In this document: positions 13,713 through 24,186 of the stretch, in pieces
How positions within the stretch are numbered: the stretch's first letter is position 1
Layout of the letters: every line of letters begins with the position of its first letter
NCBI GenBank assembly: GCA_964482105.1
Contig: CAYZWA010000001.1
Location: 18,806-42,991 of the forward strand
Source of the DNA: an uncultured Candidatus Saccharibacteria bacterium
GTDB taxonomy: Bacteria > Patescibacteriota > Minisyncoccia > Phycocordibacterales > Phycocordibacteraceae
Length of the DNA: 24,186 bases
Reading direction: 5' to 3'
Program-made: the position numbers and the translations under genes
The notes under the pieces: model-generated
What the model was told of the DNA's origin: nothing
What the model saw: only the letters and a program-made list of their open reading frames with translations
Databases searched by the model: none

Positions 13713-14732
13713 ATGGAAGAAGTCCTTCTCGACGGGCAGAGATACGTATCGTCGAAGCGAGCCGCGAAAATAACCGGCTATGCGAAAGACTACGTTGGGC
13801 AACTTTGCCGAGAAGGCAAGGTTCCTGCGCAGCTTGTCGGGCGTGGCTGGTTCGTTCTCGAATCGGCCATACGAGAACACAGATTCGGTACGTCTACGTC
13901 CGTGCACAGTGCAGACGCTGCCTCCGCAGCTGTTGTCGAGCACTCGGCCGCGTCTGAACGAGCGCGGGCAGAGAAAGAGGAGGAGCCGGCCGTCGAGGCG
14001 CATCCGGGAGACGACATCCACGCGTCTGCGCGCGCGGCGGCACTTGCTGCTGCGGCTACGCGTCTTCAGTCTCAGGTTCCGGCCCCAGAAAGAGAACCCG
14101 ACAGGGCACACGGCTACATAGCTCCGGAGGCGATTGCCGCGGAAGACAGAGCCATACGGATGCTCGGACACACCCTGGATGCGCCGACATACGAACCGGT
14201 TACCGCCGAACCGTTGCCGACAATCAATCGAATCAACCGACTCGCGGCGGTCACTGAGCTGGGGCAGGCTTCGCCAGAACAGGCGCCTGAGCTGCCGGAC
14301 GACCGGGCACCTCATGCCGAGGAGGCGCGCGTCGCGTTGCACGCGGAGGAAGAAGGGGAGTTGTCATCAGAGGTCGAAGAAGATCCTCCGGTACCCGTGC
14401 CGGTTCATCGGGCATACGAGTCCGACCATCAGGCGATTGATACGGGCGGGGAGGAGCTCAAACTCAAAAGTGACGTCAGCTATGCGCGTGCGGGGGAGAC
14501 ACGTACGACTACGGCAGTGAGGGCAACGCCGCTCGCTGCGCCGCGGCAGGCACGCCCCGCTCCACCCCGCTCGGCACGCAGGTCGCGCGTGTCTGCGTGG
14601 GTGAGCGTGGTCGTCGTCGCGGTTGTTGCACTCGGAGTTGTCACGATCGGCATGGGGGCAGTAACCCTCGGCAAGTATGCGTATCTCGTGAGCGGTTTGA
14701 CCGGTACATTTACGTACGTAAATAGCTACTAG
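13713..14732 (+). CDS. N-terminal HTH (excisionase/HTH_17-like) protein with low-complexity linker and C-terminal TM anchor
   Basis: YVSSKRAAKITGYAKDYVGQLCREGKVPAQLVGRGWFV, then an acidic/Pro/Ala linker, then the hydrophobic segment VSAWVSVVVVAVVALGVVTIGMGAV preceded by a basic patch (RSARRSR). Start taken at MEEVLL. Confidence 0.8.
   Translation: MEEVLLDGQRYVSSKRAAKITGYAKDYVGQLCREGKVPAQLVGRGWFVLESAIREHRFGTSTSVHSADAASAAVVEHSAASERARAEKEEEPAVEAHPGDDIHASARAAALAAAATRLQSQVPAPEREPDRAHGYIAPEAIAAEDRAIRMLGHTLDAPTYEPVTAEPLPTINRINRLAAVTELGQASPEQAPELPDDRAPHAEEARVALHAEEEGELSSEVEEDPPVPVPVHRAYESDHQAIDTGGEELKLKSDVSYARAGETRTTTAVRATPLAAPRQARPAPPRSARRSRVSAWVSVVVVAVVALGVVTIGMGAVTLGKYAYLVSGLTGTFTYVNSY
14708..14723. 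repeat. Perfect 16-bp palindrome ATTTACGTACGTAAAT
   Basis: Self-complementary; lies in the last codons of the HTH gene. Confidence 0.7.
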
Positions 14733-14746
14733 GTAAGCTATATATC

Positions 14747-14764
14747 GTCTCGTATATACGAGAC
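14747..14764. promoter_or_regulatory. Perfect 18-bp palindrome GTCTCGTATATACGAGAC (copy 1 of the TCTCGT-RTAY-ACGAGA motif)
   Basis: Self-complementary; a near-identical palindrome occurs at 22297-22314. Confidence 0.7.
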
Positions 14765-14794
14765 ACACCCTTATACTCGAACAAAGTACCCGAT

Positions 14795-14827
14795 ACTCCC
14801 GTGTAGCGATACACGGGTAACGGGAGT
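14795..14827 (+). other. Stem-loop with GCGA tetraloop and a competing alternative pairing
   Basis: CCCGTGTA-gcga-TACACGGG (14798-14817); ACTCCCGT (14795-14802) can instead pair with ACGGGAGT (14820-14827). Confidence 0.4.
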
Positions 14828-22028: not shown

Positions 22029-22297
22029 TGAGCGGCAGAGCATCAGCATCAGCTTTCCCGGTGGCGGTCACGAGTCCTGATAAAGTGATCTGGGAGGGGA
22101 AGGGGATCAGCGTTAGCGCTGAAAACAGTACGGGACGATTCGATATCCTTCCTGAGCACGCGAACTTCGTTACCATCATAAAACCAGGTGTCTCGATTGT
22201 CGTACGAACCGCAGAAGGTAGCGAACACACGTTCGCGTACAAGAACGTCGTCCTGGCAGTGAAGGACGGACGAGTCGGCATATATGTAAATATATAA
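22025..22297 (+). CDS. atpC: Epsilon-like subunit, beta-sandwich domain only (90 aa)
   Basis: [11 protein letters not shown]...[14 protein letters not shown] matches the epsilon N-terminal domain; no C-terminal helical hairpin. Confidence 0.8.
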
Positions 22298-22314
22298 TCT
22301 CGTGTACACGAGAT
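22297..22314. promoter_or_regulatory. Perfect 18-bp palindrome ATCTCGTGTACACGAGAT (copy 2 of the TCTCGT-RTAY-ACGAGA motif)
   Basis: Self-complementary; starts at the last base of the epsilon stop codon. Confidence 0.7.
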
Positions 22315-22990
22315 ATGTATTACATACAACAAATATTGAAATCTCTGATAGACGAGCTTTTTGATACACTGATACCCATTGGCGAAGGTACGCACGAGGA
22401 ATCGATGAGATCAGTCTGGGTAACTTGGCATATTTTCTTGTAGTTTTGTCATTTTAAGACGGTTAATTAATCATTGCGCTTTTGCGGACGGTGATAATTG
22501 ATACACCGACCGTCTCGTGCCGTGTGTACATTTATAGGGGTGGACGTGCAGTGTTCAGAACCTGGCCTGTGAGCGATTGGCAAGACGAACAATGATAGCA
22601 AGTAATAATATAGATATTTCGTCTCATTACAGATCACATGCGGCATGCATGGAGAGGCATTGTTGATGGTCGTTAAGCCGTGATCCATACCATTCTCGCG
22701 GGGATGTTCGGATTTTTATCTGGGAGTGTGCACACACTGCGCTGTAATGCCCAGTAAGAGCGCTTGCCGCACAAAACAAGAGCATACATCCGTTGCGAGT
22801 AGCGCATTCTTCGTGGTGTGCGCATCGAACCGCGGGTGCGATACGTACATGCGCATACGCATTCTTGAGTCACCATTGATTTATGGTTCAGTGCGAGTTG
22901 TCGTTAGTCGCGCACGCTATCCACACATCATCTCGAGATGCTCCTAGGCGAACACGGAAATACAGATAAAATATAAATAAATCGTCCTAC

Positions 22991-24186
22991 ATGGTACCTC
23001 GCGCACACAGCAAAGATCGACAGATGCTCTCCTCGCGAGATGCAGCGCAAGCTGTCGGGTACACGAGCGACTATGTCTCGCGTCTGTGTCGACACGGCAA
23101 GGTCGATGGCGAGAAGAGGGGCAACGTCTGGTACATTGACATGCGCTCGCTTCGTGTGTTTGTCGAAGAGCAAAAACGTGTCCAAGAAAGTTATCACGAT
23201 CAACTCGCGCAGCAGCGCAAGGACGAGTATCAAGGACCGCGCTCCGTTCCTTCGACGCCAGCACGGAAAGATACGTCGCGCGCGCGTCGGCCACGGATAG
23301 CGTTTGCGGCGGTTGCGGTCGTCGCGGCGCTCCTGCTCGGCGCGGGCATCGCGGCCGGCAACATCCTGCCGAAGCTGTTGACGACGACTGAGGTTTCTCC
23401 AGCCGCCCACTTGAGCGCGCATCGTGTCGCGAGCACGAGCCCGCATATTGCCGCGATTGCGGCGACCCAACCGGGCTTCTCAAGCGCGCTCCTGCGCGCC
23501 GTCTCCGACTCTTTCCAAGCAGTGCAGCAGAGCGTACAGCGCGCCTTCGGTTCGCTCGGCGGCCTGTTCTCACCGGCCTCGACCGCGACCTCGACTTCGC
23601 CCTCAGGCATCACACCTGGAGTCGGGGTGACGCAAGCGACGACGTCTCCTGATACCGCGGTTCTGGCGCGAACGAACCTGTTCGCGGTGCCGGCGGGCGG
23701 CACGCTCGGTATCAATACCGACGTGAACATCCGCAACGGTCTCTCGGTCGGCAGCACGGCGGCCGTGAGCGGGAACGCGAACGTCGGCGGTACGGCGCGG
23801 ATCGGCCGGACACTCTCGGTCGGCGGTGGTGCAGACGTGCTCGGCCTGCTCTCCGCGAGCGGCGGCATCACGACCGGCGGCGCGAACGTGAACGCAGGTA
23901 CCGGCCAGGTCACCGGCGCGAACATCATCAACAAGCTCCACGCTGGTTCGAATATCACGATTACGGGCACGCCGCAGGACCCGATCATCTCGTCGACCGG
24001 CAGCAGTTTCGGTTTCTTCGGGTCGAGCAACAATGGTACGGTTACGAGCGTCACCGGCTCTGGCGGCTCGACCGGCCTCTCGCTCTCCGGCACCATCACC
24101 TCGAGCGGCGCGCTCACGCTCGGCGGGTTGCTGAACATCGGGCATGGCGGTACCGGCACCTCGTCCGCACCCTCGTACGGACAGGT
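22991..24186 (+). CDS. 5' part of a large HTH-TM-fibre surface protein (runs off the window)
   Basis: Open frame from ATG 22991 to the window end, translated by hand: MLSSRDAAQAVGYTSDYVSRLCRHGKV HTH, TM IAFAAVAVVAALLLGAGIAAG, S/T-rich linker, 6-residue Gly/beta repeats, GTVTSVTGSGG...LNIGHGGTG fibre-type repeats. Missing from the ORF track because it has no stop codon in the window. Confidence 0.85.
   Translation, partial: MVPRAHSKDRQMLSSRDAAQAVGYTSDYVSRLCRHGKVDGEKRGNVWYIDMRSLRVFVEEQKRVQESYHDQLAQQRKDEYQGPRSVPSTPARKDTSRARRPRIAFAAVAVVAALLLGAGIAAGNILPKLLTTTEVSPAAHLSAHRVASTSPHIAAIAATQPGFSSALLRAVSDSFQAVQQSVQRAFGSLGGLFSPASTATSTSPSGITPGVGVTQATTSPDTAVLARTNLFAVPAGGTLGINTDVNIRNGLSVGSTAAVSGNANVGGTARIGRTLSVGGGADVLGLLSASGGITTGGANVNAGTGQVTGANIINKLHAGSNITITGTPQDPIISSTGSSFGFFGSSNNGTVTSVTGSGGSTGLSLSGTITSSGALTLGGLLNIGHGGTGTSSAPSYGQ
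23723..23881 (+). repeat. About nine tandem 6-residue beta-strand/Gly peptide repeats
   Basis: VNIRNG LSVGST AAVSGN ANVGGT ARIGRT LSVGGG ADVLGL LSASGG ITTGG. Confidence 0.7.

Follow-up and report, generated by a model that had tools for sequence, protein, structure and literature searches.

Two paralogous membrane-anchored proteins with predicted winged-helix heads on either side of an F1-like ATPase operon in a Patescibacteria genome

Two related heads on membrane anchors

This work concerns two genes, HTHa and HTHb, that lie on either side of an F1-like ATPase operon in a 24,186-nt stretch of DNA (C1:18806-42991, the whole of which is called the window here) from a 575-kb, 81-contig genome of 65.7% GC. 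The closest protein relatives of the window are labelled Kaiserbacteria, Paceibacteria, Parcubacteria or Minisyncoccota. Each of the two genes encodes a helix-turn-helix (HTH) head followed by a transmembrane helix (Table 1). The frame of HTHa begins MEEVLLDGQRYVSSKR, and that of HTHb, read from 22991 to 24184, is still open at the end of the window and of the contig. A sequence-only reading of the window had proposed that the two proteins are paralogues with excisionase/MerR-like heads, that they flank the operon and are linked to it, and that they act as a DNA-to-membrane tether or as a pair of transmembrane regulators.

Over an ungapped segment of 38 residues the two heads are identical at 17 positions, exactly as counted in that reading, and BLASTP aligned them with 18/46 identities (E 3e-9), which confirms that they are paralogous. 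When either head was searched with phmmer against the 6,109 open reading frames (ORFs) of the genome, the sole match was the other head (E 1e-7 and 6e-8). Similarly, a profile of the head family recovered HTHa and HTHb and no third copy, so the count of paralogues is just two for the 575-kb genome.

In the AlphaFold2 model of HTHa (from an 18-sequence alignment), residues 1-60 form a beta-hairpin, two helices, a beta-hairpin wing and a further helix (bb-a-a-bb-a), followed by about 230 residues of low confidence and then by a helix at residues 289-314. The model of HTHb (from nine orthologues) has an HTHa-like core plus a long helix at residues 51-81, with a per-residue confidence (pLDDT) of 93-98 over residues 10-80. 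A Foldseek comparison with the PDB placed Pukovnik Xis (4j2n; TM-score 0.74, root-mean-square deviation (rmsd) 1.1), BldC (6ama), RacA (5i44), RdfS and MerR proteins at the top for HTHa, and TraN (4p0z), Xis (4j2n), RacA, RdfS, BldC and pSK1 Par at the top for HTHb. Foldseek probabilities were 0.9-1.0 for both heads, with E-values all above 0.01 because the head domain is small; target TM-scores were 0.55-0.78 for the single-domain proteins Xis, BldC, RacA and RdfS and about 0.36 for TraN, which has a tandem fold. In sequence searches of the PDB, a head-only family profile found TraN as its top match (E 0.003) and a full-length profile of the HTHa family returned coiled-coil noise only, while NCBIfam gave no match to HTHa or HTHb. 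Basic positions are conserved on the second helix and the wing (LCR, GK, VGRxW), and R25 and W38 are invariant in the head profile. With a pLDDT above 90 and fold matches to Xis, TraN, BldC and RacA, the excisionase/MerR-type winged-helix fold is established, as a prediction, for both heads.

By the positive-inside rule, and as neither protein starts with a signal peptide, both heads would lie in the cytoplasm, N-terminal to a single transmembrane helix, and this predicted topology agrees with the one proposed earlier. In HTHa the helix (residues 289-314) directly follows the basic patch PRSARRSRVS and leaves a tail of about 25 residues on the outside. Past its own transmembrane helix, HTHb is a Gly/Thr/Ser-rich fibre with no Pfam domain in its outer part, and its full-length relatives measure 900-6,000 aa. 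The earlier description, of one protein with almost nothing outside the membrane and another with a large fibre, therefore holds.

More than 565 homologues of HTHa were found, every one of them 200-390 aa long. Residues 1-59 are about 70-78% identical across the Paceibacteria homologues, the linker of the family carries the motifs STWExPRYE, LPSINRL, LQDSWxxWF and VPIH, and the outer tail keeps the motif GSGYxD...IAG..YNK. The idea that HTHa is a phylum-wide core gene was rejected: of 401 Patescibacteria genomes sampled, only those of the family and order of the window gave full HTHa-type matches, and the remaining matches at class level were HTH-transmembrane proteins of other architectures.

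Table 1. Genes, domains and nucleic-acid features of the window (positions count from its first letter)
Feature	Coordinates	Strand	Remarks
SecA	10115-12649		
Obg	12656-13645		
HTHa promoter region	13666-13706	+	TGTGTATT at 13666-13673 (TGTGCACA in relatives); -10 box TATACT at 13701-13706
HTHa	13713-14732	+	339 aa; small tail-anchored membrane protein with predicted cytoplasmic winged HTH
HTHa winged-helix domain, residues 1-60	13713-13892	+	AlphaFold2 pLDDT 90-94; Foldseek
HTHa acidic low-confidence linker, residues 61-288	13893-14576	+	motifs PTYEP, LPTINRI, VPVH
HTHa end of basic patch, transmembrane helix (residues 289-314), outer tail of ~25 residues	14577-14729	+	
Palindrome ATTTACGTACGTAAAT	14708-14723		within last HTHa codons
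Palindrome GTCTCGTATATACGAGAC	14747-14764		starts 15 nt past HTHa stop; read as 3'-end hairpin
Hairpin CCCGTGTA-GCGA-TACACGGG	14798-14817		GNRA-type loop
TATCCACA box	14897-14904	+	20 nt upstream of g3 start codon
g3, Ala-rich transmembrane-anchored protein	14925-16124	+	subunit-a slot
F1-like ATPase operon, c-like to epsilon	16121-22297	+	Pfam hits; orthologous operons in relatives
c-like subunit g4 with exported domain	16121-16957	+	Pfam hits for operon
b subunit	16968-17750	+	F1-like operon
delta subunit	17754-18293	+	F1-like operon
alpha subunit	18290-19771	+	F1-like operon
gamma subunit	19762-20619	+	F1-like operon
beta subunit	20607-22028	+	F1-like operon
epsilon subunit	22025-22297	+	F1-like operon
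Palindrome ATCTCGTGTACACGAGAT	22297-22314		starts on last base of epsilon stop codon
AT-rich leader/intergenic gap, 693 bp	22298-22990		carries TATCCACA at 22918-22925
HTHb, type-II anchored giant fibre	22991-24186	+	first 398 residues only; contig ends
HTHb winged-helix domain and long C-terminal helix, residues 10-81	23018-23233	+	pLDDT 93-98; Foldseek
HTHb transmembrane helix, residues 101-131	23291-23383	+	basic patch RKDTSRARRPR in front

Gene order in the genus and the wider superfamily

The earlier reading was right that HTHa and HTHb flank the operon in the window, but this is not the basic arrangement. Among 20 genomes of the genus with an HTHa match, 17 have a second HTH gene 1.1-1.8 kb downstream of HTHa on the same strand, with an open frame of 450 to about 6,000 codons and without the operon. 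In the eight congener loci inspected, SecA and Obg lie upstream of HTHa in all eight, and an HTH-bearing gene follows it directly in six: a giant HTHb in five (G017, G003, G007, G024 and G009) and a 470-aa protein in the slot of g3 in the sixth (G004). The F1-like operon occurs in just three members of the genus (G000, G004 and G012), where it sits between HTHa and the HTH-bearing fibre, and in one genome of another family in the order (G028). The ancestral order in the genus is thus SecA-Obg-HTHa-HTHb, and the two HTH genes flanking the operon are a derived state of a conserved adjacent pair. In one congener with a giant HTHb (G017) the pair lies at C1:977460-993452, the last 16 kb of a single-contig record of 993,452 bp, and would adjoin the replication origin if the record starts at dnaA.

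In relatives that lack the operon, the giant HTHb has a membrane-proximal part with homology to g3 of the window. The gene in this slot starts with an HTH in G004 and without one in G012 and the window; counterparts lie at L013:6916-8295 and L021:10480-12282. The counterpart in G012 exceeds 600 aa, and a contig that possibly adjoins it (L014) opens with Ig-like repeats.

A second alpha/beta pair is found on contig C20 of the same genome, and the operon of the window is therefore an extra, divergent F1-like set. In this tightly packed genome the bin at 22001-23000 has 47.6% GC, against 65.7% genome-wide; the gap behind the operon contains no notable ORF, and Rfam gave no match there or anywhere else in the window.

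Furthermore, HTHa and HTHb are members of a larger, Paceibacteria-specific superfamily of proteins with one or two HTH heads, a transmembrane segment and a variable ectodomain. The HTHb head, searched against 1.84 billion cluster representatives, matched 2,878 clusters at E <= 1e-3, and the named members were all Paceibacteria, Parcubacteria or Minisyncoccota. Among the representatives of the best 150 of these clusters (proteins P0123-P0272), two heads stand in tandem in 121 and a single head in 29, and a transmembrane segment lies within 200 residues past the last head in 117. Lengths range from 83 to 7,214 aa, with 27 of the 150 above 1,000 aa, and some superfamily members bear the annotation immunoglobulin-like or adhesin. 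The genus of the window, with single heads on two adjacent genes, differs from this tandem-headed majority. An origin of the pair by splitting of a tandem is not supported: when the heads of the 121 tandem proteins were typed with HTHa and HTHb profiles, their order was inconsistent.

Association of the heads with the F1-like operon

The signature gene of the operon is the c-like subunit with an exported domain, which is present at full length in about 16 of 400 genomes of the class. We searched 20 operon-bearing genomes with the head profile and found at least one head in 13; in ten of these 13, a head-bearing gene lies at the operon (Poisson-binomial P ~1e-14, with a chance expectation of 1-5% per genome). 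In four genomes from three families (G693, G760, G744 and G551) the head and the c-like domain share one ORF, in the order HTH, linker of 100-270 residues, transmembrane segment, exported beta domain and c-like hairpin with a GRNP loop, and Pfam HTH_17 matches three of these four fusions (E 1e-3 to 2e-2). At the four fusion loci the downstream fibre has only a short basic N-terminal tail and a transmembrane helix. At six loci with a short c-like subunit (the window, G004, G012, G548, G567 and G706), it is the downstream fibre that carries the head. The head is thus on the fibre or on the c-like subunit and never on both (Fisher P 0.005 over loci), a complementarity that spans only six families and has a P of about 0.05 at family level.

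A tree of the heads, short and weakly resolved, joins the fused heads to the fibre heads of G567 and G706. It places those of the window, G004 and G012 beside that of G548, from a different family, rather than with those of operon-less congeners. These groupings suggest that operon and fibre move or persist as a cassette, with the head shuffled between two subunits of one apparatus.

The association has to be set against a reading in which the operon landed, or stayed, at a permissive site beside a giant fibre gene and the HTH pair is unrelated to the ATPase. Most HTH pairs come without the operon, as the 17 congeners with an adjacent pair illustrate, the head profile found no match in seven of the 20 operon-bearing genomes, and in G028, which belongs to these seven, the operon is followed by a fibre that lacks an HTH. 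However, the fusions of head and c-like subunit already strain an incidental neighbourhood, and neither the frequency of co-localization nor the complementary placement on fibre and c-like subunit fits it; we regard it as very unlikely. What the headless operons and operon-less pairs do establish is that neither motor nor head requires the other, and the link is facultative in both directions. The link to the operon claimed earlier is therefore upheld by co-localization and by the fusions, but not as an obligatory one.

Two further observations touch the operon and its subunits. In G028, two genes upstream of the operon (L020:1444-2163), a 240-aa protein resembles, on visual inspection, a divergent HTH (YLSLAQALDVSGLSLPELRRAMALGVIRG...) with a transmembrane helix behind it; neither Pfam nor the head profile recognized it. 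The exported domain of g4 (residues ~40-180) recurs inside many giant ORFs of 600-6,600 aa across the class: it was matched in 86 of 401 genomes, about 16 of which have the full-length c-like gene.

Possible roles of the heads and known systems

Our tentative proposal is that the heads bind DNA at the membrane, as a tether and/or as a ToxR-like regulator. The head would be a portable cytoplasmic foot of a fibre/F1-like surface apparatus, carried either on the fibre or on the c-like ring subunit. HTHa is the conserved version almost without an ectodomain, having a C-terminal transmembrane helix and a short outer tail, and in HTHb the same head precedes the signal-anchor of a giant fibre; in the window and two congeners the F1-like operon, with its own fibre subtype, takes up the site, which leaves the HTH genes flanking it. 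A head that binds DNA as its structural relatives do could keep the nucleoid, or else the locus of the apparatus itself, at the place in the membrane where the apparatus sits. Alternatively or in addition, it could control transcription while anchored in the membrane, as ToxR-type transmembrane regulators do, and HTHa might be a partner or a competitor of HTHb at the same DNA. DNA binding is favoured because the close structural neighbours (Xis, TraN, BldC, RacA, RdfS and pSK1 Par) are all DNA binders, because the basic residues of the recognition helix and the wing are conserved, and because head and membrane are joined by long linkers of low model confidence (about 230 aa in HTHa, 100-270 aa in the fusions), with which the head could reach the nucleoid and which fit a target away from the membrane.

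The DNA around the two genes was examined for sites at which such heads might bind. The palindromes at 14747 and 22297 had been put forward as candidates, and this suggestion did not survive. Their 16-bp core (TCTCGTRTAYACGAGA) has two copies genome-wide, which are these two palindromes; both lie at the 3' ends of genes, with a GNRA-loop hairpin near the first, they differ by compensatory central changes that keep the symmetry, and none of the relatives has a counterpart at the corresponding sites. As symmetry kept through compensatory changes is the behaviour of RNA hairpins, we rejected these species-specific palindromes as operators and read them as 3'-end RNA hairpins. A consensus promoter and terminator scan gave no excess over shuffled controls.

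Upstream of HTHa, the arrangement TGTGCACA-N27-TATACT-N6/7-ATG is common to most of 14 aligned loci of the genus, and the TATACT box, 6 nt ahead of the ATG in the window, implies a leaderless or near-leaderless mRNA. The whole promoter is near-invariant in the genus (window 13666-13715; L002-L013), reading TGTGCACA, CTCTTCC, AGCCGAGATA, TATACT, 6-7 nt and ATG. An operator specific to HTHa within it was rejected, since the same architecture (TGTGCAYA-N28-31-TATACT) also precedes parB on contig C2 and an unrelated, DUF-like membrane protein on contig C15 of the window genome. Similarly, in 10 of 11 loci, drawn from several families (window, L013, L015-L019, L022, L032 and L035), the start of HTHb has a TTATCCACA box 60-100 nt ahead of it. 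TTATCCACA is the textbook DnaA-box consensus. It has nine copies in the window genome, where TATCCACA has 18 (5.4 expected). An inverted pair stands ahead of dnaN, and g3, HTHb, a pilin-like gene and a tRNA each have a single box upstream. These boxes could be part of a DnaA regulon or a lineage-specific promoter element.

Several results weigh against DNA binding by the heads. No operator could be named among the palindromes and the conserved upstream boxes, and boxes that also precede unrelated genes are more simply general promoter or DnaA-type elements. The HTH_17 family (PF12728), which the earlier reading had named, does match both proteins, but at 19.0 bits for HTHa and 18.1 bits for HTHb, under the gathering cut-off of 27 bits; the orthologues score 21-25 bits, and many homologues carry a precomputed PF12728 hit. 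The fold itself can act through protein contacts, as the presence of CbpM bound to the CbpA J-domain among the Foldseek matches of HTHa illustrates. Furthermore, the link with the operon is facultative, as described above, and a DNA-binding head on each copy of a supposedly rotating c-like ring would be mechanically awkward.

In a different explanation, the head has no role at DNA, having lost it or never had it, and serves in the cytoplasm as a docking module for the assembly or positioning of the surface apparatus. Its partners could be other heads (with HTHa and HTHb mimicking tandem heads), the stalk or the head of the F1-like ATPase, or a partner from the cytoskeleton or from secretion; by analogy, the HTH of RodZ binds MreB. 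A domain that shifts between the fibre and the c-like subunit of one apparatus is classic for an assembly module. The tandem heads of 121/150 representatives resemble the internal dimer of TraN, with single heads on adjacent genes in this genus, and CbpM offers a precedent among the fold matches. The HTHa head is about 75% identical across its group, and STWExPRYE and LQDSWxxWF are typical of partner-binding peptides. A docking role explains the shuffling and the motif-rich linker of HTHa equally well and avoids the problem of a DNA-bound rotor. However, no candidate partner is named, the top fold matches are all DNA-bound proteins, the conserved basic residues lie where Xis and MerR proteins contact DNA, and the absence of a consistent a-type/b-type order in the tandem heads leaves the split-tandem origin of the pair unsupported. 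A purely protein-binding head is the main alternative, though somewhat unlikely.

The strongly conserved cis-elements ahead of HTHa and HTHb would also suit a transcription factor that is released from the membrane. Here the fibre or the c-like fusion would be cut near its transmembrane segment, by signal peptidase or an intramembrane protease, upon host contact, pulling on the fibre or failed assembly; the freed head would alter transcription, and HTHa would serve as a membrane-held decoy or co-regulator. The succession of cytoplasmic head, short helical linker, transmembrane segment and huge ectodomain parallels systems of regulated proteolysis, and AGIAAG, a run of small residues where the HTHb transmembrane helix ends on the outer side, could be a cleavage site. 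Against this, no protease gene is linked to the pair in the loci examined, HTHa has nearly no ectodomain with which to sense, and the idea is purely inferential; we consider both the release and its proposed triggers improbable.

Returning to DNA binding at the membrane, a stronger version is that the heads couple DNA physically to the ATP-driven F1-like/fibre machine. As a head can be carried by the c-like ring subunit itself, the ring would then be either DNA-tethered and static or driven by ATP in a way that acts on, or is read out at, the DNA. We think this decidedly unlikely. If it were true, the machine would connect a host-attachment fibre directly with the chromosome, mechanically or by signalling, in cells with very few classical regulators, and a static, tethered ring would mean that the F1 part does something other than turn it.

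Patescibacteria make up a large, mostly uncultivated share of bacterial diversity, and their host attachment and sensing are largely unexplained. In this setting, giant surface fibres are systematically joined to a domain of DNA-binding type, and in some lineages so is the rotor-like subunit of a non-canonical F1-type ATPase. Should the heads bind DNA, they would provide a very direct connection between surface and chromosome, as an anchor or a signalling line; should they bind proteins, they would show where a new surface machine is assembled on its cytoplasmic side. HTHa and HTHb are best studied as one system together with the Ala-rich protein, the c-like subunit and the fibre.

Among known systems, RodZ combines an Xre-type HTH (HTH_25/HTH_19), a transmembrane helix and a periplasmic DUF4115 domain. 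Pfam searches of HTHa and HTHb gave no match to HTH_25, HTH_19 or DUF4115, only a weak one to HTH_31 in HTHb (E 0.066). The gliding machinery of Mycoplasma mobile has an F1-like ATPase with giant surface leg proteins. Similarly, the second, divergent F1-type ATPase described here is genetically coupled to giant transmembrane-anchored surface proteins, which is a likeness of the operon and not of the HTH. However, the subunit sets are unrelated and the lineages differ, and we know of no DNA-binding-type heads in the Mycoplasma mobile machinery.

RacA of Bacillus subtilis ties chromosomal DNA to the cell envelope, but reaches the membrane indirectly, via a coiled coil and DivIVA, and has no transmembrane helix or ectodomain. 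Its MerR-like winged-helix head (PDB 5I44) matches the fold of both models at TM-scores of 0.5-0.6. In contrast to RacA, the proteins described here have direct transmembrane anchors, only a 30-residue helix follows the HTHb head, and there is no significant sequence similarity. The excisionases and BldC (Pukovnik Xis 4J2N, RdfS 8DGL, BldC 6AMA; PF12728) share the small fold (TM-score up to 0.78, rmsd 1.1-2.2 A), but they are small and soluble, and no integrase or mobile-element context was seen in the window. Our search of the literature found no description of excisionase-type heads on giant fibres, tail-anchored partners or c-like ATPase subunits.

TraN (ORF14, 'AM32') of the Enterococcus plasmid pIP501 is described in its PDB entries (4P0Y, 4P0Z, 4PM3, 6G1T) as a double-stranded-DNA-binding protein of a type IV secretion system. 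It is the best PDB sequence match (E 0.003, which is marginal) and the top fold match of HTHb, and it has tandem folds, as do the 121/150 superfamily representatives. In contrast, the deposited chains of TraN have no transmembrane segment or ectodomain, and HTHa and HTHb have one head each and no tandem internal dimer.

Finally, proteins that combine a DNA-binding domain with a transmembrane segment are a recognized broad class, the transmembrane transcription regulators (TTRs), among which single-pass forms are commonest, at 56% (Demey et al., 2023; PMC10269533). HTHa and HTHb fall within the definition of that class, as each holds a DNA-binding-type domain and at least one transmembrane segment in one protein (PMC10269533). 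Like ToxR, TcpP, CadC and VtrA, they unite an N-terminal cytoplasmic domain of DNA-binding type, a single transmembrane helix and an extracytoplasmic C-terminal part in one polypeptide. They differ from these TTRs in that the head is an excisionase/MerR-type winged helix rather than an OmpR-type one, in that the outer part, instead of being a compact sensor, measures only about 25 residues in HTHa and forms a fibre thousands of residues long in HTHb, and in that some members of the family fuse the head to an ATP-synthase c-like hairpin.

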